From a virus, in the IMG/VR virus record IMGVR_UViG_3300045988_095709, positions 1 to 64,000 of that record: DNA of 64,000 nucleotides; one strand, written 5' to 3'. The notes beneath the pieces were generated by a model. It made no database searches. It worked only from the letters and a program-made list of their open reading frames with translations, and had not been told where the DNA came from. The position numbers and the translations under genes are program-made. This document shows positions 888 to 28,518 of the stretch, in pieces; the stretch's first letter is position 1, and every line of letters starts with the position of its first letter.

Positions 888-1895
888 TTAACTCTTCCTG
901 TTGACGGCTTCTATGTATTTTTTAGTTTCATATTTATTTATTGTATTTTCTAACCACAATCGTGTATTATCCATTCCGTTGTTTTTTACACAATCGGATA
1001 TGTCTTTGCTTTTAAACTTTTTGTTTATAAAGAACGCGTCTATTTTATATTTTTTAGAATATTCTCTAGCTTTCGACATTCCTGTAGCATCTCTATCGTA
1101 CAATATATAAATGTGAGACCATTTGTGTTTTAAATCTTCTAATAAATCTTCTGGTATAAATACTGTTTCACTCGAAGCACTTATTGCAAAATATCCCATC
1201 TCATATAAAACCATTACGTCCTTTAAAGATTTCGTAATTATGAGAATATGTCCTCCTTTTGGAGGCAGTTCAGCAAGACCTTGTATGTCGTTAATTTTTA
1301 AATTAGTCCTCCATTTTTTTAATTTTGTTTCATAAGGTCTATATATTTTAAAGTGATTAAACACTTTATACGCATACATCGGACTTGATTTTGAATAACG
1401 AGCACGTAATGTACCGTTACACAAAAAATATTTTATACTAAACACATTAAATTTCTTTAACGTATCTATTGTTATACCATATTGAGACCAATATTGTTTA
1501 TCAATATCAGTAAATGGTTGGCGTGCTATTTGTATTTCAGTATCGTGAGATTTTATTTCAAAATTTCTTTTTACCGGAATATTATTAGGATTCGTACGCT
1601 TTATTATCTTTAGTAATTCTGATTCTAATTGATCTTTTGTGTTTAATCTGTTTATCAGTTTTACAAATTTTAAAGCGTTTCCACTTTCACCGTTTCCGTG
1701 ATCTTTAAACAATAAGTCTCCATTTTTTCCTTTGAATATAGCAAAAGATGGATTCTTATCGTTAGATCTTAAAGGACTGTTATATAATTTATTTACTTGA
1801 AAATTTCCTATATAATAAGAATACATAGTATAATCATCTAGTAAATCTAACAATCCTTTTAGATTTTCTTTTTGTGCTAACTTGGTACTATACAT
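888..1895 (-). CDS. DNA primase-like protein (TOPRIM/DnaG-like C-terminal half)
   Basis: 335 aa. ILIITKSLKDV...YILYDRDATG resembles the TOPRIM DxD block. Neighbours are SSB, helicase and polymerase. Confidence 0.5.
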   Translation of the reverse strand: MYSTKLAQKENLKGLLDLLDDYTMYSYYIGNFQVNKLYNSPLRSNDKNPSFAIFKGKNGDLLFKDHGNGESGNALKFVKLINRLNTKDQLESELLKIIKRTNPNNIPVKRNFEIKSHDTEIQIARQPFTDIDKQYWSQYGITIDTLKKFNVFSIKYFLCNGTLRARYSKSSPMYAYKVFNHFKIYRPYETKLKKWRTNLKINDIQGLAELPPKGGHILIITKSLKDVMVLYEMGYFAISASSETVFIPEDLLEDLKHKWSHIYILYDRDATGMSKAREYSKKYKIDAFFINKKFKSKDISDCVKNNGMDNTRLWLENTINKYETKKYIEAVNRKS

Positions 1896-1910
1896 GATTC
1901 TAAGATTCTT
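1894..1910. repeat. Copy A of 15-nt motif TGATTCTAAGATTCT
   Basis: Same 15-mer as at 17438, 17527 and 17611. On the minus strand it reads AGAATCTTAGAATC and directly abuts the primase ATG. Confidence 0.7.
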
Positions 1911-1919
1911 ATATAATTG

Positions 1920-2006
1920 TGTAGTATGGGAGATTCGAACTCCTGGGTTAATGAAACCCTTCCGAAATAATAGTGAGTCTACTCATTAATGTAGTTCGCA
2001 TACAAC
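1920..2006 (-). ncRNA. tRNA-like element (T-arm, long variable-type hairpin, 6/7-bp acceptor; no canonical D or anticodon arm found)
   Basis: Minus-strand GGAGTTCGAATCTCC T-arm. GGGTT-TCATT-AACCC hairpin just upstream. GTTGTAT pairs with ATACTAC with one mismatch. I could not fold the body as a standard tRNA. Confidence 0.35.
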
Positions 2007-2167
2007 TATTTCTTACCACATAAATTCTCATATCTCTGCAACTAAGATTATAAATTTTAATTGACTTACGAGATATGAGAACAGATTAATATTTCAACAT
2101 ATGAAAGATATAATAAAAATGAAAAAGTCAGTAATTTTTAATTACTGACCTTTACAAAAGTTAATCG

Positions 2168-2758
2168 TTAAAACGGTAAATCTTCGTCTCCGGCAGGTTC
2201 TTTTGTATCATTTATTTTTGGCAATTCTACAACTTCTTCCTTGTCGACTTTTATTTCAGGTTTTACAACCGTATCTCTACCAGTAATAACAATTTTTGAA
2301 TCTTCCTGTTTTACATCCATCGGTTCGATAAACTTTCCGTTAGATGATACCTTGATAAATCCGTTTTTATCGTATACTACTTTTAATCGTAACAACTTTT
2401 GCGCATTTATCTTTGGTGAGAGAGTGTCTTTAACCCATTTTATCATTGAGCTAAAGTCGTTAAGTTCAACGTCACCTACAGGTTCATCACATATCGCGTT
2501 TATAACCTGTAATATTCTTCCAAACTGTAGATTATCTCGATATTGCAAATCCTCATCGGTTTTGACCCATGCGGATTTTTTATTTTGCCACTCTGTCATA
2601 GGAGCGGTATTTCCATCTTTTTGAAATATTATCTCTAAATAATCTATACCGTTTGGTGTAGTTTTTACATTTACTTCTTTTAACGTAACATTGTTGTTAA
2701 TTCCCGCCGGAAGATAATTGTTATCCGAACTAAATACTGCAGTCTTAGTACTATACAT
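2168..2758 (-). CDS. ssb: Single-stranded DNA-binding protein (SSB-like)
   Basis: 196 aa. Acidic C-terminal tip ...GDEDLPF resembles the bacterial SSB tip DDDIPF. Adjacent to a Sak4-like ATPase. Confidence 0.5.
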   Translation of the reverse strand: MYSTKTAVFSSDNNYLPAGINNNVTLKEVNVKTTPNGIDYLEIIFQKDGNTAPMTEWQNKKSAWVKTDEDLQYRDNLQFGRILQVINAICDEPVGDVELNDFSSMIKWVKDTLSPKINAQKLLRLKVVYDKNGFIKVSSNGKFIEPMDVKQEDSKIVITGRDTVVKPEIKVDKEEVVELPKINDTKEPAGDEDLPF

Positions 2759-2760
2759 AA

Positions 2761-3501
2761 TTAATCGTTTTTATAAATTTTATTCCAATAAGTTGTTAAT
2801 GTTCCATCTTCATTTCCAGTAGCAATAATAATATCGTTACCTCTAAGATGTGGGGCTCTGGCTTCTTTTATTGTACCATCACCACCTTTAAAGCTAATAT
2901 GTGTTTCGTTTCCCTTTCGATAAACAAATCCTACTGCATCTGCTTCTCCACAGATTATAGAACTTAATTTACCAACAAGATCTAACGCCATCTGGCTGAG
3001 CTCTTCTCCGTTTTGTTCTATTTGAACGTCTTTGACATGTCCTACCAATATGAATTCATCACATAAGCATCTGAACATATCAATTACTTTTCTAACAGCT
3101 TCACGAAGATACATATAACCACTTCCGTTGGGCAATGTACGTATATCATCACCGTCGTATTTTTTACCCATCGGTGTTTGTTTATACAGTGTTTTAGCGT
3201 AAGATAAACAAATCTCTTCTAGTCTAGTAGCATTGTCTATAGTAATGTGCTTATAGACATTATGTCCTACTTTTTCATTCTCAGCTCTAATGGCTTGAGC
3301 AATTTCTCCTAATTCTTTTATCGTTCTTGCTTGTACAGCCATCGCATCGATAAATTGTGATCCACCTTCCAAATCGATTATTAGATTGTTTTCTAACATC
3401 GATAATGCGTGAGTCTTTCCCGACTTAGGACGTCCGTATATAATCAAGAATTTTGGATTTACAGAAATTGCTGGAATTTTTTGTGTAGGTAATATTAACA
3501 T
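2761..3501 (-). CDS. RecA-fold P-loop ATPase (Sak4/AAA_24-like)
   Basis: 246 aa. Walker A YGRPKSGKT near the N-terminus and a hydrophobic-D Walker B (ITIDN). Confidence 0.5.
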   Translation of the reverse strand: MLILPTQKIPAISVNPKFLIIYGRPKSGKTHALSMLENNLIIDLEGGSQFIDAMAVQARTIKELGEIAQAIRAENEKVGHNVYKHITIDNATRLEEICLSYAKTLYKQTPMGKKYDGDDIRTLPNGSGYMYLREAVRKVIDMFRCLCDEFILVGHVKDVQIEQNGEELSQMALDLVGKLSSIICGEADAVGFVYRKGNETHISFKGGDGTIKEARAPHLRGNDIIIATGNEDGTLTTYWNKIYKND

Positions 3502-9429: not shown

Positions 9430-9498
9430 TGGTCCATAGGGGGATCGAACCCCTCTTCAGAGATAAAAATCTCCTATCCTACCTACTAAGAATGGACC
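9430..9498 (-). tRNA. Atypical tRNA-like gene (69 nt) with a non-7-nt anticodon loop
   Basis: Perfect acceptor GGTCCAT/ATGGACC and T-arm AGGGG-TTCGATC-CCCCT. The central arm GGAG(A)-TTTTTA-(T)CTCT gives a 6- or 8-nt loop. D-arm is weak. Confidence 0.45.
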
Positions 9499-10134: not shown

Positions 10135-10743
10135 TTAATCCACATTTACATTGATGTCAACGCGTACCTGCTCGTTCTTCTTGTCCAACTGGCGATAGTA
10201 CTCGATGGCACTGGTTTCATTATAATCCATCGTCGACTGAATGATATCCCGTTGCTTCTTGAGAGCCTCAATAAGCTTATCAATTCGTGCGATTTCGTTT
10301 GTGTTCGACGGATTGAGCGTATTGACCAACTTCTTCACGTTAGAGAAGAAGATGTTCTGTGTATCCGCCTTGTTGATTGCCTCTGCGATGTTGTCTACAG
10401 AAACTTCTTTTGTAAACTTCGAATTGTCGATCGGGCAACGAATCTCAACAGACTCTCCCGACTCGTCTACGCGCCCTGGATTTATAACTATGACATTACT
10501 TCCGTCGACATCCTTAGCCAAATCCAAACTTACGATATCGATAGGAATGATTTTAAAACGATACGGAGATCGATTGGTAGTTAGGCCGTTTTCTTCGTTT
10601 GCTTGCCGTAACTCTTTGCCGAAAGCTAAATTTGTTGCTATTTTCTTTGCTTTATAAATACGATGACCAAATAACTGGCCAAAGTTTGCCATGTTTACAC
10701 GATTGTCTTCAACGATTTTTACGTTGATCTTTTTTGCTTCCAT
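10135..10743 (-). CDS. Hypothetical protein (GC-richer, probably well expressed)
   Basis: 202 aa ORF. Composition looks clearly GC-richer than its neighbours. Confidence 0.6.
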   Translation of the reverse strand: MEAKKINVKIVEDNRVNMANFGQLFGHRIYKAKKIATNLAFGKELRQANEENGLTTNRSPYRFKIIPIDIVSLDLAKDVDGSNVIVINPGRVDESGESVEIRCPIDNSKFTKEVSVDNIAEAINKADTQNIFFSNVKKLVNTLNPSNTNEIARIDKLIEALKKQRDIIQSTMDYNETSAIEYYRQLDKKNEQVRVDINVNVD

Positions 10744-12679
10744 AATTTTTTAAACCCTTTTTGATTTTGTCCATGATCGGACAGCGGTTATACATATGTT
10801 AAATAAAATGTTTTTTGTAAAGGATTTTCGGAACAGATTAATTTATATATAAATTACGCTTTTTTACTTACAGGTGATACGAAATCCAACGGTAGGATAT
10901 ACTAAGTCGCACAACTGCAAAGAATCCCATTCAAAGCTATGAACGTCTGTTTTAAATTCAATTATTTTCTCCTTTACTAAAATAAGATGTTTTATTTTTA
11001 TTCATATTACATATTAATGTTTCAGGAATCTATAACATGTAATATGAATTTTGTTTTTCCCACAAAAATAATTTCTTCTTACTTTCCCATTAAGAAGTTT
11101 TGCCATTTGTTCAGTCTTGCGATACTGATTAGGATGGCTCCACTGTTCTCCCTTTACTCGTGGCAGGTAGAACAATCAATAGTCTCCACGTACTTTTTAA
11201 ACGTAAATTCCAAACGTTTCATTATCGGACACTCTAGCCTTCAGAGGGTATCTACGAGTCTACGGTGGTTATTCGACGGAAAACCTTGCTAAAAACCATT
11301 TTTATTTATAGTACACGAATATTTTTGATTTTAACAAAGTACATACTAAACAATTATCACCCACTTATATTTTCCTAACGTATAGAGACAGTATACGCTA
11401 GAGTGAGATTTGCACTCACATGCATACGCTACTGCACTGCACTAATAATACAAGCTGCCTATATATTTTTCTGTACGGGTTCTGTCTTTAGCGGGAACAT
11501 ATATTGTTGCGCAATATACTTTATCGCTGACTACCCAATAACGGTTGGTACTCGAACTTTCCGGGAGTTACTTCTTACTTACAACATAAGGTTGTTCACA
11601 TCCGGAGGACATCAATTTTTGTTAAACATGTTAATTATATTTGATATGTAGTTTTCTCTACACCTGGACATAATATATTTACATATTATTTTACTTATGC
11701 TTAAATCATCTATGCATCATCGCAATATCTATCATTATTCTTACTGTTCTTTCATCTTTACGATAAATATTATAGATAATTATGAAAACATGTCATAATA
11801 CTTCATATATTACTTAAATTGGCGCTGACGGAGGTCCATTATAACTGGAGTGTTATACTTCGAATCAGTCAACGTGCGCTTATAACAACTAATAGTAAGC
11901 ACTAACTATCGGATCTTTGATTGTCAAGTAATCATCTAAACACATTTCATATATACATGATGTTGCTAAGATATCAGTATATAATTCTGTCTTCAGTCCT
12001 ATGAACGCGGACTCTAGACGCTATGTATATGCCAAATACATCTAGTCATTCTACTTTTATATACCGCATGAACGACCAAGGCCTGGCGGTCTTATCTCAT
12101 TATAAGACGATAGTTTTCTCAGCCATTGATTTTTACCGTATCCCTGAATCCTTTGATGACTCAAAAGACTACTGAATCGAACAGTACGGATTTAATTTTA
12201 GACACTGTATTTACCATACAGCTTGAGCTATTTGTCATATTCTGATCTAAATCACAGAACATCTCTCAAGTCCTTCTCTATCGCTACCTTATACCCTAAT
12301 AAAATTTTCATCCCTTTATAATCGCTTTGGAGGCGACAAACACTAGACTAAGCAAAATAGTACATCATATAAAGTTTGGAATTTTATATGTTGCAGCACT
12401 TGTTTTCGGTTACCGACATTACCTGTACTAAATAATGAAGAGTATAGCTACCGGTTCGTTTCGCCTGATTGTCAACTCAGGACTTACGCGTCTTCCAATA
12501 AACATATCGCCAGACGGTTCTCATATGTATTGATAGGGTTGAATACAACGCTCTCCCTACTTACATAATGTTTTTCACGCATTATGCATTTCGCCCTATC
12601 TTTTGGGTATCTCACCGCTTTAACGGATAACATATTTTCGGGCCCAGTCAATTTTGAAAATTTATGAATGAAAATCGTT
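10744..12679. other. About 1.9 kb ORF-poor island; candidate large structured RNA(s) or decayed genes
   Basis: Only two implausible plus-strand ORFs (101 and 82 aa). Spot checks show TAA/TGA in all minus frames within about 30 codons even if TAG is read through. Composition is more balanced than in flanking genes. T-arm-like TACTG-TTCGATT-CAGTA on the minus strand at 12170-12186. Confidence 0.4.
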
Positions 12680-12704
12680 GGAAAGGGCTAATGAGACCCT
12701 TTCC
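12680..12704 (-). terminator. Stem-loop downstream of gene 12718..13113
   Basis: GGAAAGGG-9 nt-CCCTTTCC lies 14 nt after the TGA stop. Only a weak T-run follows. Confidence 0.5.
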
Positions 12705-12717
12705 TTGATTATTCTAT

Positions 12718-13113
12718 TCAAGATAGTCCATCGCACAGACTATCTGGAACTGCTATCGGCTTTTGGATCGTATCATAATCTCGCGCTTTAAATATATGAT
12801 ACTTAGTTGAATCCAAGGTTGCTTCCTTCCGAACCTTTTCGACTGCTATATACAGTACAGGCACATACAACGTGTCATGTACTGCATAAGGCACTCTTTT
12901 TGGTTTGTCACGATATACAATACTGTCTACGTATACAGTATCTATATGTGTTCGATCTTGTCCCCGGTTATTGGACAATTTTAAATCGAATGGCATACTG
13001 GTAAGTACAGTAGAGGCCATAGCTGTAGGTGGATCTTTACTGTTGTTCAAGCCCACTATTGCTCCAAATAAGAGCAAGCACAGACTACTTATAACTGTTG
13101 TCAACTTTTTCAT
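12718..13113 (-). CDS. Hypothetical exported or membrane-anchored protein
   Basis: 131 aa. N-terminal hydrophobic segment MKKLTTVISSLCLLLFGAIVG. Confidence 0.6.
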   Translation of the reverse strand: MKKLTTVISSLCLLLFGAIVGLNNSKDPPTAMASTVLTSMPFDLKLSNNRGQDRTHIDTVYVDSIVYRDKPKRVPYAVHDTLYVPVLYIAVEKVRKEATLDSTKYHIFKARDYDTIQKPIAVPDSLCDGLS

Positions 13114-13219: not shown

Positions 13220-14722
13220 TTATTTTTTTCCTTTTTTGTCGGCTAATGTTTTTTTGCCTTCAGCCTTGTTGTTCTTTTTATCCTCCTTTTTCTGTTCAGG
13301 CTTTGTTTCAGGCTTTTTTGCCGGCTCGTTCTTCTTAGAATCGGTCTTACCCTCTTCTTTCTTTTCTTCCTTCTTTTCTTCTTTGTTTTCGGCAGCCCTT
13401 TCTTCCTTTTTAGCTTCTACGGCAGCCTTACGCATTTCTTTGAGTTCCTCTTCGGTATACTTTTGAAGTTCATGCACATTTTCGATTCCGTAGTCCATGA
13501 TCTTTGTACCCTCGTCGCGGAATAAGTTCACAATATAGCCAGCATACTGCTGAATATTGCTTATGTAATTCTTGTATGCAGTGCCGTTTTCGTTAGGATA
13601 GAATGCGTTCTTTATCCTACCGACAATCTTCATACATGTAGCATCTTTACTTTCGTATTTTGTAGGAATGCTTTCGATGATAGACACGTCCGTATTGAGC
13701 ATATCCTTAACGATATCGTTATAATGCTTGATAGAAGCTTCGTACTTCTTTACAATACTATCGTAATCTTTCATGTTCTTATCGAGAGCGTCGATATTCT
13801 TCTTTTCGCTTTCGATAATGTTGTTACATACGAACTTGACGATAGACTTCACGGCGTCTGCTATAGACTGATCATCCCACTCTACAGTATTTGTTTCTTT
13901 GTTTGTGAGATTCTGTCTGAGCACACAGAACGCTGTTATCGGCGACTTTTCTAAACCGATAGATGTTGCAAGACCTCTACCGATTCCCTTCATCAGGAAC
14001 GAAGGTTTAACGAATGAGAATATGTCATCCATCCACTCTTCCATCGTTCTGTTATCGTACTTAAGTTTTGCTTCCGCAGCATTCTCGGCTTTATCTGCCA
14101 TGTTCATACGATAATCGTGCATGAAGTCTACGGCGTTTACAATTGTATCTTTTATGCTCTTTCCTGTCTTAGGACCAACGATCAAGATATAAGAAAGCGC
14201 TTTTCTTAAATCCTCTTCTGATTCAATCTTCTTAGGATCGAGTTCCGGCTTCTCGTTTTCCAACTCTTTCTCATTCTTGAGCGTTTCGCGAGCCTCCTTC
14301 GAGATAGAAATCTCATCTGCAATCACTTTTATCTTGCCCTCTTTCTGAGGAAGTGATTTGATATTAGGTAACTTAATACCCATATCGTTTGCGGCTGTGA
14401 TGAGCTGCGGATACATCTTGTTACTCAGAACTATACCAAACGCTGTGTTTCCATATACAGCCTCGTCTGCTAATGCGGCTACAACACCTGCAGCGATGAT
14501 TTCATTCATAGATTCACGAAGCTGAAGAGAATACTTTCTTTCAGCGTCCGGATCTTTTCTGAATACGTCGTTTGCCAGATTTAAAAGCTCTACTCGATGG
14601 TTTGCGTCGAGAGCCGAACTTGTTGTTTTCAATGCGTCTTTTCCTGCGTTAACCAATTCTACTGTTGTTTCAACTGTCTCTTGCTGATTAACGTCTGCTG
14701 GAATCTTATTCTTCTTTGCCAT
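13220..14722 (-). CDS. Hypothetical protein with Lys/Glu-rich C-terminal tail
   Basis: 500 aa and GC-richer. The last ~75 aa or so are KE-rich low complexity. N-terminus MAKKNKIP... resembles that of 17760..18254. Confidence 0.7.
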   Translation of the reverse strand: MAKKNKIPADVNQQETVETTVELVNAGKDALKTTSSALDANHRVELLNLANDVFRKDPDAERKYSLQLRESMNEIIAAGVVAALADEAVYGNTAFGIVLSNKMYPQLITAANDMGIKLPNIKSLPQKEGKIKVIADEISISKEARETLKNEKELENEKPELDPKKIESEEDLRKALSYILIVGPKTGKSIKDTIVNAVDFMHDYRMNMADKAENAAEAKLKYDNRTMEEWMDDIFSFVKPSFLMKGIGRGLATSIGLEKSPITAFCVLRQNLTNKETNTVEWDDQSIADAVKSIVKFVCNNIIESEKKNIDALDKNMKDYDSIVKKYEASIKHYNDIVKDMLNTDVSIIESIPTKYESKDATCMKIVGRIKNAFYPNENGTAYKNYISNIQQYAGYIVNLFRDEGTKIMDYGIENVHELQKYTEEELKEMRKAAVEAKKEERAAENKEEKKEEKKEEGKTDSKKNEPAKKPETKPEQKKEDKKNNKAEGKKTLADKKGKK

Positions 14723-14806: not shown

Positions 14807-15172
14807 TCAAGATGTGTCAAAGAAACTTATATTGTTTCTTGGTTTTTTGGGTTTAGAAACCACGTCGTCATCATTAACATTTGAGTCTTCTTGTATTTCA
14901 GGTACAGTATCATTACTTTCTATAACCATTACATTTGTATCTTTTGGGATTACAAACGTTGTATCATTATAGATAGTAATGTTATCTGTACCTGTATACA
15001 ATGCTTCTTTGTTAATTTTATTGACGTTTTTTACATTAGATACTACCGTTCCACCGATGAATCCAGTCATCATCGACATTAACAGTATCCAGAATAACTT
15101 ATTACTCTTATTATAACGGGCAATTAAGAGAATAGTGGTTATTCCAATTAAAAAACTTAATAAATTTAACAT
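14807..15172 (-). CDS. Small membrane protein (possible sigma-factor partner)
   Basis: 121 aa with two N-terminal hydrophobic helices. Overlaps the end of the sigma factor gene by 7 nt. Confidence 0.55.
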   Translation of the reverse strand: MLNLLSFLIGITTILLIARYNKSNKLFWILLMSMMTGFIGGTVVSNVKNVNKINKEALYTGTDNITIYNDTTFVIPKDTNVMVIESNDTVPEIQEDSNVNDDDVVSKPKKPRNNISFFDTS

Positions 15173-15684
15173 AGCTTTTTTAATAATTTTCTACTTCTAT
15201 GCAAATGTGACTTAATAGTTCCTTCTGGCATTGAAGTTATTCTTTTTATTTCTTTAATTGACAGATTATTTATATAAAATAAAGTACAAATCAATTTTTG
15301 TTTTTCTGACAAACTGTTAAAGTTTTTTATCATCGATTCGTAAGTTATCTTATTTTCTGTGTCACATTCTTCACTTTTTATGTTTTCAGTAAAGTCTGTT
15401 TCTTTATGTTTCATTGTTCTCAAATAATCTATAGCTACGTTTTTCGCTACAGTTCTTATCCAACCCTGAAACGTATTATAATCTGTAAATTTGTTTAATT
15501 TTTCGTATATTTTCAAAAATACAACATTTGTTAAATCTTTTGCTTCATCCATATCTTTTACATATGTATAAAGTAAATTATCAACAAACGTTTTGTATTT
15601 TTGAAATAGAGAGTTAAAAGCTTTTATAGATCCAGCTTTTGCGTTCTTTATGATCTCTATTTCTTCTAGAGTACAAGAGTTCAT
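15166..15684 (-). CDS. ECF-type sigma-70 family RNA polymerase sigma factor
   Basis: 172 aa. Region 2-like DEAKDLTNVVFLKIYEKL...QGWIRTVAKNVAIDYLR. Region 4-like LSIKEIKRITSMPEGTIKSHLHRSRKLLKK. Confidence 0.75.
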   Translation of the reverse strand: MNSCTLEEIEIIKNAKAGSIKAFNSLFQKYKTFVDNLLYTYVKDMDEAKDLTNVVFLKIYEKLNKFTDYNTFQGWIRTVAKNVAIDYLRTMKHKETDFTENIKSEECDTENKITYESMIKNFNSLSEKQKLICTLFYINNLSIKEIKRITSMPEGTIKSHLHRSRKLLKKLC

Positions 15685-16969: not shown

Positions 16970-16984
16970 AGTTATAAATTTATG

Positions 16985-17048
16985 TTGGTAAGTGAGGATT
17001 CGAACCCCACCTACCATTTGTACGTTTGGCGAATAGGTGTACTTACCT
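16985..17048 (-). ncRNA. Truncated tRNA-like element (about 64 nt)
   Basis: T-arm TGGGG-TTCGAAT-CCTCA. Acceptor AGGTAAG/CTTACCA has an A1-A72 mismatch. Only 32 nt lie between them. Confidence 0.3.
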
Positions 17049-17180
17049 ATTGACTAATTCTTACGCTACGCAAGAATAGTCGATGACATTTTTAGTGCCG
17101 TTTAAATTTTAAAAATGAATCTCGTACTTATTTCTTTGATGCAATCAAACGCCATTCATCCCCTTTGTATTTTGTTATTG

Positions 17181-17223
17181 TGGAGATGGAGGGAGTCGAA
17201 CCCTCGTCTTACATCAGAACATC
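17181..17223 (-). ncRNA. tRNA 3'-half-like element (T-arm plus 3' acceptor strand; no 5' partner found)
   Basis: GAGGG-TTCGACT-CCCTC followed by CATCTCC A. No GGAGATG within 550 nt upstream. A short GATG/CATC helix closes it. Confidence 0.3.
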
Positions 17224-17437
17224 GTACTAATAACGATTCTTTTTGTGGATATGTAGAATGGCCGGTTCTACATACCCTAAATACGTTATAACTTAATTTA
17301 TTTGCCATTTAATTCGTTTCTAATTTGTTAGTAATCTTAAAATGATTAGCTACTTCATTTTAAAATTTTAACGCGTCAGAATTAAATTAAACGGCAAATA
17401 TAAGCATAACGTTTGTGTAAGGTTTACGCATAGATTA

Positions 17438-23955: not shown

Positions 23956-24119
23956 AATTTTATATTTTTAGTTAATAATAATCTTATGGAGTTTGCACAA
24001 AGAGCTATATATTAATAGCTTTTGGTTTTGTGCTGTGTGCGATAAATCTATAATCCCTGAGATTTTGGATTATCACGGGTTTTTGAAAAAATTTCGATTA
24101 GCTTGCGAGTATCAAACGT

Positions 24120-24500
24120 AGTTGTTTTTAGGGTTGTTAGAGAAATTCCCCCGAATGACTTAGTGTGACCGAAATGGATTGGAGGATTAGGCTTTGTCAA
24201 ACGGGGGATGTAGTAACCTTCAGTAGTTTAAGCGAGCGTTGTGCATAGATATCATATGGAACTTAGCGGAAAGAGCAATGCTTGTCTACTGAAGGTTTTT
24301 GTAATCATCAAAAAATGCCAGTCTTCCAACTGGCTGTGTAGTGATACTTGATAGGATAAACACCAAGCGGAACTACCTTGAATCTACTGACCTCTCTTTT
24401 TTGTTACCACACGTTTCAGTATTCAATCTTCGTGTGCAATCCATATAACCGTACCTATGGCTACATTAGGTTTTTGGCTATACGAGCGTTTGAAAAACTA
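24120..24500 (-). ncRNA. Promoter-box-fronted ORF-less unit (candidate small RNA(s))
   Basis: Box at 24505-24522. No standard ORF of 60 aa or more. Minus-strand terminator GCCAGT-TGGAAG-ACTGGC plus T6 at 24310-24334. Perfect 12-bp inverted repeat AACCTTCAGTAG/CTACTGAAGGTT at 24215-24226 and 24286-24297. Confidence 0.35.
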
Positions 24501-24590
24501 TATGTTAGCTTGCGAGTATGAATTCTGTTGATATTAAGTGACGTGGTTGTATTTAAGTAGCGTGGTTGATTTGTAGAGGAGTGGTTGAAA

Positions 24591-24614
24591 GGAAGGGGAT
24601 TGGTTACCCCTTCC
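24591..24614 (-). terminator. Stem-loop after gene 24632..24877
   Basis: GGAAGGGG-8 nt-CCCCTTCC lies 18 nt past the stop. Confidence 0.55.
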
Positions 24615-24631
24615 AATTTAGTAAGGAGAAC

Positions 24632-25256: not shown

Positions 25257-25332
25257 AATATGTTTTAATGATTACGGTTTTTAGATGTGTTATATTTTTT
25301 GCTTGCAAGTATCAAATGACAGAAGTAAGAGA

Positions 25333-25524
25333 TTAAGAATCTCCCACCTCTATTTCATTTTCGAGTATAAAACCCGCGATCTTATACTCAAACAAATCCT
25401 GAACGTCTTCACCATCCATTGAGATTTCGTCAGGATTGTCAGACCATTGTGTACGAACTGTGTACACAATAGTTTCATTTTTAGGGTCTTTTACTTTCAC
25501 TACCCTTCTATATTTTGTCGTCAT
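25333..25524 (-). CDS. Hypothetical protein
   Basis: 63 aa with its own promoter box. Confidence 0.55.
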   Translation of the reverse strand: MTTKYRRVVKVKDPKNETIVYTVRTQWSDNPDEISMDGEDVQDLFEYKIAGFILENEIEVGDS

Positions 25525-25598
25525 AGTATATATATTTGATTACAGTTAGTAGTAGTAATTATGATTTGCTTTCAAGTATACAATAAAGGAAGACACGA

Positions 25599-25805
25599 CT
25601 ATTTAGCCGCATCTTCCTCTTTAGGTTCCTCAATCTCACGAGTTTTAAACTCGTAGAACACGCTAAGATATTTAGCATGACTGAGGATATACTCTTCTAC
25701 TTCTGGTGTGAAACACTCCTGTAAAGTGTTACACCAAGGACCGTAGGTCCTATATACCTTGTAACCTGCCTTCCTTATGCAGATTACTAATTGTACCTGT
25801 GTCAT
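25599..25805 (-). CDS. Hypothetical protein (ends at TAG)
   Basis: 68 aa with its own promoter box. Confidence 0.55.
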   Translation of the reverse strand: MTQVQLVICIRKAGYKVYRTYGPWCNTLQECFTPEVEEYILSHAKYLSVFYEFKTREIEEPKEEDAAK

Positions 25806-25903
25806 AATATGTATATTTGATGATTACGACCTGTTGTGTAACATTTTACTTTGCTTGCAAGTATAAAAAAAGTAGAGGAATAATCCCCTACCCTTTTGAT
25901 AAG

Positions 25904-27870: not shown

Positions 27871-27875
27871 AATAT

Positions 27876-28019
27876 TTAGTCTTTATCGTCAATACCTTCT
27901 CTGTTATAATCCCCGTTTTTATATCTTTTGTTCTCCATTCTTATCATTCTTTCGATAAGATCGATAAAATTATCATCTTTTAGATAATCAGATATTCTTT
28001 TAGTTCGTTTTTGAGTCAT
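27876..28019 (-). CDS. Small hypothetical protein (47 aa)
   Basis: Below the track cutoff. MTQKRTKRISDYLKDD... with ATG at 28019 and TAA at 27876-27878. Confidence 0.4.
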   Translation of the reverse strand: MTQKRTKRISDYLKDDNFIDLIERMIRMENKRYKNGDYNREGIDDKD

Positions 28020-28515
28020 ACTATTTTGATTTATTTTTCATTCTATTTGCGTGAAATACATATTTAGAACACTCTTCTATAGTATCGTTTCCGTCTTCAT
28101 TTTTTACACTTTGAAAATATTTCAAGTGTTTTATATGATTTTTATATGTATCTAACGCCTTTTTTATAACTTTCTAATCCTCATAGTACAACACACATTT
28201 TAAAATCTATTCACCGTTTATACTACCCATAGATCCTACAGAACATAGACTATATATAAAAGATTGTACGCCTTCGTGCCCAAAGTTTTCTATTATTCTG
28301 TTTATATCCTATGTTGATTCTAAATAATATTTATTATCCATGTTATATTCCGGTGTGTTTCCTAATAAGTATGACACATGTACTGGTATACCAAATATTA
28401 CATAATATTTACACGTGTCGGTAACTGGTACATACTAACTTCTCAAACTCAGTACGTCACTATAAAACAGTACGGCGTTCTAATATAGTACTTCTTGCAA
28501 ATGCTATTTGTCCAT
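28000..28515 (-). CDS. Hypothetical protein, readable only with TAG as sense (7 in-frame TAG)
   Basis: Triplet-by-triplet check of the minus frame from ATG 28515 to TAA 28000-28002. There are 171 sense codons, seven CTA on the plus strand (= TAG), and no TAA or TGA. It fills a gap that otherwise looks non-coding. Confidence 0.6.
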
Positions 28516-28518
28516 AAA

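Follow-up and report, generated by a model that had tools for sequence, protein, structure and literature searches.

The closest described counterparts of the element reported here are two large RNAs, GOLLD, ~0.8 kb in length, and ROOL, ~0.6 kb. GOLLD is reported to form RNA-only multimers, and ROOL too to form RNA-only assemblies (PMC12286853); ROOL was recognised through covariation alone (PMC5737381). We analysed a 64,000-nucleotide (nt) stretch of viral DNA (positions 1 to 64,000 of IMG/VR virus record IMGVR_UViG_3300045988_095709, hereafter the window), which comes from a crAss-like phage, and focused on a 1974-nt gap free of open reading frames (ORFs) that is bordered by minus-strand genes on both sides. 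With a probability that we put at roughly 0.8, this gap is a conserved locus for a structured non-coding RNA (ncRNA) encoded on the minus strand. Judged from comparison of related sequences, the locus would extend over ~1.9-2.0 kb, contain at least four domains and be conserved across the Suoliviridae.

10744-12717, minus strand: whole ORF-free conserved element, candidate giant ncRNA locus (stop codons, nhmmer homologs, RNAalifold).

The gap begins after the stop codon (12718-12720) of an upstream gene for a 131-amino-acid (aa) protein and ends at the ATG (10743-10741) of a downstream 202-aa gene. The first-pass annotation of the window had described an ORF-free island ending at 12679; the island is real and slightly longer, ending at 12717. 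The stop codons it had noted in every minus frame extend to all six frames, as TAA, TAG and TGA are all present in 6/6 frames of the gap (31-58 stops per frame), and therefore no reassignment of a single stop codon opens any frame. The longest ORFs, of 101 and 82 aa, are both on the plus strand and had been considered implausible in composition; neither they nor three gap ORFs of 50-55 aa matched anything in Pfam or PHROGs. When minus-strand ORFs of at least 60 aa are counted, the gap is the largest in the leftward arm (1-29.6 kb), the runner-up measuring 742 nt and containing a transfer-messenger RNA (tmRNA). Three other minus-strand ORF-free stretches of ~650 nt each in this arm (23956-24631, 25257-25903 and 27871-28518) may be small genes or other RNAs. 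The impression of a more balanced base composition held for A/T skew, which is nearer zero in the element than in the flanking genes, and did not hold for GC content, where the range of 0.29-0.39 lies within the 0.26-0.44 of the neighbouring sequence.

The element is conserved at least as well as the genes around it, with a mean identity to the window of 0.57-0.60 versus 0.39 and 0.52 in the adjacent coding stretches, and in the relatives conserved blocks alternate with length-variable insertions. The period-3 component of the substitutions was 17 times the median in the downstream gene and at most 4.6 times the median anywhere in the element. A scan of ten relatives for open frames of 90 codons or more found only antisense, non-conserved frames of junk-like composition, apart from two on the sense strand of contig L118, which are 97 and 115 codons long. 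The alignments show that what is under selection is RNA base pairing, together with invariant loops and junctions, rather than codons. A decayed gene cluster, one of the candidates put forward at first, or a gene missed through an unusual code or frame would find some support in a 53-aa minus-strand ORF of plausible composition at 11014-11175, within the region of ~11000-11230 that had looked protein-like. The ORF is there, but it occupies the least conserved part of the element, and the relatives carry frame-breaking indels in it that are not multiples of three. Given also the three kinds of stop in every frame, the missing period-3 signal, the antisense and non-conserved frames of the relatives (save the two in L118), the lack of Pfam and PHROGs hits for the longest ORFs, and a level of conservation that decaying DNA would not keep, the probability of decayed or missed genes is negligible.

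An unannotated gap of 2.0-2.5 kb lies at the same syntenic spot in the subfamilies Oafivirinae, Loutivirinae and Boorivirinae of the Suoliviridae, crAss-like phages that are abundant in the human gut, where the gene order is ECF-type sigma factor, small gene, 450-500 aa, 130-190 aa, gap, ~200 aa, ~190 aa. Using blastn, we found patchy matches to the island (70-90% identity) in six phage records, five of which belong to the Suoliviridae, Oafivirinae, namely cr131_1, cr130_1, cr272_1, cr273_1 and a Bohxovirus. For the remaining one, Dulem virus 42, the record gives no rank below Caudoviricetes. In 6/6 records the match falls inside a 2.0-2.2 kb stretch without credible annotation. The RefSeq records that were opened and the Bohxovirus have at most one short hypothetical ORF touching the gap and the RefSeq records show no RNA gene there; in Dulem virus 42 the gap is annotated only with a string of tiny over-called ORFs. 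Divergent forms with the same gene order are present in cr53_1 and cr4_1 (Loutivirinae) and in cr50_1 and cr10_1 (Boorivirinae), the subfamily assignment of the divergent forms being taken from the taxonomy records of these four only. The same forms also match cr60_1, cr113_1, cr109_1, cr52_1, cr56_1, cr55_1, cr1_1, cr6_1, cr114_1, cr125_1 and cr115_1.

Scanning IMG/VR for exact occurrences of the best-conserved 17-mer yielded 119 loci. An nhmmer profile built from the seven first sequences detected full-length homologs of ~2.0-2.2 kb at ~45 loci and matched ~35 further loci over the first ~180 nt only, the latter at the 5' edge of an ORF-free gap of ~2.0-2.1 kb. Full-length or 5'-domain homologs are present in more than 60 IMG/VR contigs, which form 39 clusters at 95% identity. 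A blastn search with the 166-nt 5' domain (domain I) returned 3 phage records only and is too insensitive for counting. A profile built from the other subfamilies alone gave collinear hits in the window at 12642-12465 (E 4e-16) and 11640-11495 (E 1.6e-8). A non-circular check was provided by two contigs, L140 and L141, which were fetched via distant homologs (36-39% identity) of a 500-aa protein encoded upstream of the element. Both have the same gene order and a gene-free gap of 1.96-2.18 kb, inside which lie matches to the two covariance models, R1 and R2, described below.

Among 185,579 species-representative genomes the combined motif occurred 7 times, in every case in a metagenome-assembled genome (MAG); 4/7 of the contigs are ~100 kb long, which matches crAss-like genomes in size, and two of those four are in Segatella copri bins. 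We read these as phage contigs binned into MAGs, and no cellular homolog of the element was found in this genome set. L133 (101.6 kb) and L139 (101.0 kb) are element-bearing, high-coverage contigs in Segatella (Prevotella) copri MAG bins, a faint hint at the host. The element is also found on two IMG/VR contigs well above the usual ~100 kb, L054 (195,667 nt) and L074 (162,493 nt), which may be concatemers, chimeras or larger relatives.

The comparison of related phages for covariation that the first-pass annotation had called for revealed compensatory base-pair changes, and these are already apparent in plain MAFFT alignments, built with no structure to guide them. The stem around the invariant strands GAGAAUAUG and CAAAAGGUAG reads ATCC/GGAT, GCCC/GGGC, GTTC/GAAC, GTGG/CCAC or GTAG/CTAC across phages. 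RNAalifold, applied to an unfitted alignment of 34 sequences, predicted four pairs of this stem, with double-sided changes at 4/4 and 0 broken. Covariance model R1 describes the 5' domain with five helices and 27 pairs. Its hit at 12499-12649 (minus strand) reaches 153.9 bits and is the only one in the window; 57 other loci match the model. In the R1 alignment (47 distinct sequences) 92.0% of cells are paired, compared with 59.3% in shuffled controls (a value reached in 0/500 shuffles) and 34-45% in slid controls. Double-sided changes occur in 25/27 pairs (401 cells), and the covariation score is 0.74 versus 0.19 shuffled and 0.07-0.14 slid. Model R2 (13 pairs), ~1 kb downstream of R1, has its hit at 11528-11628 (minus strand) with 87.7 bits, and a further 28 loci match it, cr4_1 and cr53_1 among them; 92.4% of its cells are paired versus 69.9% shuffled and 33-45% slid, and 11/13 pairs covary.

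Over the full length, RNAalifold of 19 Oafivirinae-type sequences (group 1) gave 240 pairs, of which 88.1% of cells are paired versus 34-42% slid, with double-sided changes at 148 pairs (657 cells) compared with 65-92 pairs (121-185 cells) in the slid control. An independent alignment of 20 sequences from the other subfamilies (group 2) gave 159 pairs, 89.6% paired versus ~40% slid, and double-sided changes at 94 pairs. Compensatory pairs beyond controls, the general mark of a structured ncRNA, are found in the R1 and R2 alignments and in both full-length sets.

The same alignments allowed us to assign the strand. In domain I the ratio of G-U to A-C combinations is 64:12 on the minus strand; over the full length it is 528:129 on the minus and 365:209 on the opposite strand in group 1, and 371:51 and 238:99, respectively, in group 2. 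At two of the modelled pairs, G-U or U-G is the predominant combination. The alifold energy is -261 kcal/mol for the minus and -227 kcal/mol for the plus strand, and the single-sequence folding z-score of 11900-12660 is -2.84 and -1.24, respectively. Counts, G-U pairs and energies thus indicate an RNA read from the minus strand, as are all the flanking early/middle genes. Of the candidates first proposed, one or more large structured RNAs is the one upheld, by synteny, by conservation without a coding signature and by hundreds of covarying pairs on the gene-sense strand. The proposed origin did not stand up. A DNA-level element, that is, a replication origin or packaging site whose hairpins act in single-stranded DNA, would account for a large non-coding, hairpin-bearing region with some inverted repeats. 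However, the asymmetry between G-U and A-C argues for a single transcribed strand, the cumulative GC skew reaches its minimum and the gene arms diverge at ~29.7-30 kb, 18 kb away, with the skew unbroken through the element, and the island contains no tandem repeats or iterons, only short two-copy matches. We regard such an element as having only a very slim chance, although one above that of decayed genes.

Read 5' to 3' on the minus strand, the element is organised as follows.

12680-12704, minus strand: 5' flanking hairpin, GGAAAGGG/CCCTTTCC, with the near-invariant apex GGTCTCATTAGCC at 12686-12698 (sequence read).
12499-12649, minus strand: domain I, five helices (R1 model, pairing, G-U counts).
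12643-12640/12596-12593, minus strand: domain I helix P1.
12627-12623/12618-12614, minus strand: domain I helix P2.
12586-12580/12570-12564, minus strand: domain I helix P3, with a GAAAA loop.
12559-12555/12538-12534, minus strand: domain I helix P4.
12528-12523/12507-12502, minus strand: domain I helix P5.
12508-12522, minus strand: invariant 15-nt P5 loop, GAGAACCGTCTGGNG (invariant in 34-47 distinct sequences, in part by construction, since the loop served as the fishing pattern; confirmed in L140 and L141, which were fetched via the neighbouring protein).
11918-12390, minus strand: domain II, many short covarying hairpins (helix map).
11650-11917, minus strand: AT-rich, poorly conserved linker with one covarying helix, 11776-11769/11709-11702 (column identity, helix map).
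11200-11648, minus strand: domain III overall (helix map).
11528-11628, minus strand: domain IIIa, a long irregular hairpin with helices Pc, Pa and Pb (R2 model, nhmmer).
11200-11527, minus strand: domain IIIb, covarying hairpins at 11397-11379, 11365-11310 and 11264-11226 (helix map).
10970-11199, minus strand: variable region with length polymorphism, holding the non-conserved 53-aa ORF (alignment).
10846-10965, minus strand: domain IV, covarying hairpins including ATCC-TACCGTT-GGAT at 10899-10883 (helix map).
10745-10783, minus strand: 3' hairpin TGTCC/GGACA (10783-10768) and ATCAAAAAGG motif (10765-10754), with 7 covarying pairs.

The 5' hairpin follows directly on the upstream stop codon, and across 19 relatives its loop is conserved and its stem covaries; its apex, GGTCTCATTAGCC, has no other exact copy in the window. 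Drawn as a GGU/GCC stem with the 7-nt loop CUCAUUA, the hairpin resembles the anticodon stem-loop of tRNA-Met (CAU), which could be a coincidence or a recognition or processing signal. More helices lie between domain I and ~12400. The most conserved block of domain II, GACCGCCAGGC...CGGTATATAAAAGT with a 13-bp hairpin at 12079-12042, has a column identity of 0.9, and a 50-nt block of this domain is 90% identical to cr272_1 and cr273_1. The T-arm-like hairpin that had been noticed at 12170-12186 is present in domain II as an isolated stem-loop. Its stem is preserved by compensatory changes in the relatives (ACTG/CAGT, GCTG/CAGC, CCAG/CTGG); in cr272_1 and Dulem virus 42 the loop does not retain the T-loop form. 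The domain IIIa hairpin is capped by a conserved GUUGUAA loop, followed by GCCAACCGTTA / GCCAACCGUUA, and domain IIIb contains the invariant blocks ATTCGTGCACTATAAA and GTTCGATAATGAAACG. The 3' hairpin and ATCAAAAAGG sit just before the ATG of the 202-aa gene, and this motif is not general in the window; likewise, GGTCTCATTAGCC and ATCAAAAAGGRT were not enriched as general signals in the window.

Two further sequence features were noted. At the start of domain III, TTAACATGTTTAAC with the palindrome AACATGTT (11621-11634, minus strand) is conserved across Suoliviridae subfamilies, and an exposed palindrome of this kind could mediate RNA-RNA dimerisation. The pentamer ACCGT occurs in four invariant blocks on the minus strand (GAACCGTCT, CAACCGTTA, CACCGTAGA and TACCGTTGG, at ~12517, 11552, 11270 and 10893, respectively) where ~1 would be expected; a fifth copy, AACCGTATCG, is found in relatives.

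Several points weigh against reading the locus as one large structured RNA. The R1 and R2 alignments were fitted to their models and the full-length structures were derived from the same alignments, so the covariation figures given above are somewhat inflated; despite these somewhat flattering absolute numbers, the margins over the controls are large and consistent. For domain III the single-sequence folding z-score is -0.7, which is not significant. The helix map contains no covarying long-range helix that ties the domains together. A kissing interaction of the P5 loop (12515-12508) with 12088-12081 was predicted and is not claimed here: the pairing is uninformative because both sides are invariant, and the sole informative variant, in L005 (U to A), is uncompensated. 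Finally, the stretches 11650-11917 and 10970-11199 are poorly conserved, and several separate RNAs may be present.

The main live alternative is a tandem cluster of independent smaller RNAs (for example of ~750, ~440 and ~120 nt) with their own ends and functions. Conservation and covarying helices come in blocks split by the two poorly conserved stretches, no covarying helix was found to bridge them, and the linker contains a sigma-70-like hexamer pair (11/12 matches; 11796-11769, minus strand). This last site, however, is in sequence that is not conserved, and the sigma-70 scan of the region gave promoter-like hits no more often than shuffles did (13 vs 13.3). Neither a conserved Bacteroidota promoter motif (TAnnTTTG at -7) nor a conserved T5/U-run was found inside the element in either alignment group. 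Moreover, the order, strand and spacing (880-1230 nt) of domains I and IIIa are constant in 34 loci across subfamilies. We consider a cluster of separate RNAs doubtful, yet the most serious of the competing explanations. From the sequences, we place the odds that the locus yields a single 2 kb molecule at about even.

Terminator-like hits numbered 3 versus 1.7 in shuffles, with none on the minus strand inside the island. Since conserved internal promoters and U-runs and minus-strand terminators are all missing, the RNA is probably part of a polycistronic transcript that is subsequently processed. Another reading is a giant cis-acting leader or intercistronic region of the operon, which would not work in trans but govern how the 202-aa gene and those beyond it are processed, stabilised or translated: no terminator-like site separates the element from the flanking genes on the minus strand, a conserved hairpin stands just after the upstream stop codon, and a conserved covarying hairpin with ATCAAAAAGG lies directly on the start region of the 202-aa gene. 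Against this, known bacterial and phage cis-regulators need far less than the ~240 conserved pairs and numerous invariant loops spread over 2 kb here, the size would be unprecedented, and the most conserved parts are 0.5-1.9 kb from the start codon to be regulated. A cis-acting leader is therefore improbable, more so than a cluster of separate RNAs.

We searched the element against Rfam 15, whose 4227 families include GOLLD, ROOL, OLE, HEARO, group I and II introns, RNase P and rRNAs. This search, which had been proposed with the large ornate RNAs in mind, gave no match in the island, either at the gathering score or, over 10500-13000, with E allowed up to 10; the elements of 13 relatives likewise had none at the gathering score. 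Membership in the GOLLD or ROOL families is not supported by the covariance models themselves: that of GOLLD (RF01998) has no match in the window, in 10500-13000 at E<=10 or in the 13 relatives, and that of ROOL (RF03087) none in the window or the 13 relatives. The OLE model (RF01071) has no match in the window, and the neighbouring genes have no Pfam match save an ECF sigma factor. Neither ARAGORN nor the tRNA model RF00005 detected a tRNA inside 10744-12717. A full-text literature search that included papers on crAss-like phages found no description of the element.

An intron was also considered. Group I and II self-splicing introns are common in delta and zeta crAss-like genomes and the delta group carries many group I introns (PMC7886860). 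On this reading the locus would be a self-splicing or mobile ribozyme, either degenerate or of a novel type, for example a group I- or II-like intron without an ORF, and some relatives do contain strings resembling group I R/S elements, ACGACTAGA and TATAGTCC. These strings are absent from the window's own copy and are backed by no model: group I (RF00028) gave no match at E up to 10 in the window and none in the 13 relatives at the gathering score, and group II (RF00029 and related) gave no model match and no protein-family hit in the gap. No homing endonuclease or reverse transcriptase ORF was found by ORF scans, Pfam or PHROGs, and the element occupies one fixed locus in all relatives instead of a patchy set of sites. 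In all relatives the flanking ORFs are complete, separate genes with their own stop and start codons, and the island, lying between two complete genes, is therefore not the intron of a split gene. We regard an intron-like ribozyme as very improbable, if marginally less so than a DNA-level element.

The genes and RNAs around the element are listed below.

12718-13113, minus strand: upstream 131-aa gene, syntenic neighbour of unassigned function (ORF, synteny).
13220-14722, minus strand: gene for a 500-aa protein, all-alpha and with a tail rich in Lys and Glu, invariably the second gene upstream of the element (homologs, model).
15166-15684, minus strand: ECF-type sigma factor heading the syntenic block (Pfam Sigma70_r2 3e-13, r4_2 2e-9).
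10135-10743, minus strand: downstream 202-aa gene, syntenic neighbour of unassigned function (ORF, synteny).
16970-17270, minus strand: permuted tmRNA, RF04321 at 47.6 bits, with the ARAGORN tag peptide GTKNVIDYSCVA* (Rfam, ARAGORN).
9430-9498, minus strand: tRNA-like gene 1.2 kb downstream, 29.6 bits, just above the Rfam threshold and missed by ARAGORN.

In every relative examined an ECF-type sigma factor heads the block upstream of the element, and it was the only flanking gene recognised by PHROGs and Pfam. IMG/VR UViG_3300045988_119203 encodes a protein with 100% identity to the 202-aa product. The 500-aa protein has 103 homologs, all crAss-type, and no Pfam domain; its AlphaFold2 model (pLDDT 74) is all-alpha, Foldseek against the Protein Data Bank (PDB) gave nothing better than E 0.09, and a PDB sequence search returned nothing. 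It was considered as an RNA-binding partner, but searches and model were uninformative and no partner protein was identified.

The permuted tmRNA lies ~4.3 kb upstream of the element and is conserved in relatives (L012 598-849; L114 6263-6572). The tRNA-like gene has good acceptor and T arms, a degenerate D arm and an odd 6-nt 'anticodon' loop, UUUUUA; in relatives, tRNAs lie 2-4 genes downstream of the element. The earlier comparison with giant RNAs near tRNAs is thus apt as an analogy, the element sharing with GOLLD and ROOL a phage location near tRNA-type genes. Upstream of the sigma block, the divergent relatives L140 and L141 each have another gap without genes, 1.2-2.0 kb in length (1494-3455 and 2219-3447, respectively), and the equivalent region of the window contains the tmRNA. 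Elsewhere in a Suoliviridae-type contig (L030 13704-13805, minus strand) a RAGATH-20 RNA was detected at 122 bits. The late rightward arm of the window (33500-64000, plus strand) is TAG-recoded: under the standard code, open frames of 200 codons or more take up a fraction of 0.25, which rises to 0.88 with TAG readthrough. No suppressor tRNA with a CUA anticodon was detected within the window.

Returning to the structured RNA, it would be made as part of a leftward polycistronic transcript starting near the ECF-sigma block and then be processed, with the conserved hairpins at its two ends as candidates for a processing or protective role. A compact tertiary fold seems plausible because of the many GNRA-type loops, the T-loop-like hairpin and the invariant loops of 7-15 nt (GAGAACCGUCUGG, GUUGUAA). 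By analogy with GOLLD and ROOL, the product may persist as a stable RNA or ribonucleoprotein (RNP) particle during infection rather than act as a short cis regulator. That it is one autonomous RNA of ~2 kb folding into a defined machine, be it a ribozyme or an assembly of RNA alone or of RNP that would resemble the cages of GOLLD and ROOL, is a tentative proposal that we would not bet on. As the permuted tmRNA, the tRNA-like gene and the tRNAs of the relatives are nearby, it is tempting to speculate about a role in translation or RNA metabolism, a preferred guess that we hold weakly.

If there is indeed one autonomous ~2 kb RNA, it would be the largest structured non-ribosomal RNA known from bacterial viruses, and its maker would be the most species-rich crAss-like group of the human gut. 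For RNA structural biology the locus offers a new, abundant and naturally diverse target, with at least 39 sequence clusters for covariation and cryo-electron microscopy, and for phage biology a new non-protein player in crAss-like infection beside the sigma factor, the tmRNA and the tRNAs.

Altogether, we class the element as a new family in the loose kind of 'giant ornate phage-borne RNAs', analogous to GOLLD and ROOL, unrelated to them and belonging to no known family. Large RNAs supported by covariation also include OLE, HEARO/omega RNA and raiA, whose partners are encoded nearby; here a ~500-aa and a ~130-aa gene are always adjacent, but there is no model match and no transposase or IsrB-type gene nearby. 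The group I and II introns of crAss-like phages are likewise large structured RNAs, whereas the element lies between complete genes and is universal, not sporadic. ROOL resembles it as a large structured RNA of gut and rumen metagenomes that is often phage-associated and near tRNAs (PMC5737381). ROOL differs in having no model match here, in its other conserved motifs and in its length of ~0.6 kb. Like the element, GOLLD is a very large, ornate, multi-domain RNA of phages and prophages that lies near tRNA-type genes, and both have conserved loops, which suggest tertiary or quaternary contacts. The two share no match in sequence or structure, and their sizes differ (~0.8 kb for GOLLD versus the ~2 kb locus). 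Their hosts differ as well, GOLLD being found in Lactobacillales and lake metagenomes and the element in crAss-like phages of Bacteroidota, where, in contrast to GOLLD, it keeps to a single syntenic site throughout a phage family. A conserved RNA with ~240 pairs would be 2-3 times GOLLD, the largest ornate phage RNA so far, and the function of giant phage RNAs thereby becomes testable in a second, independent family.

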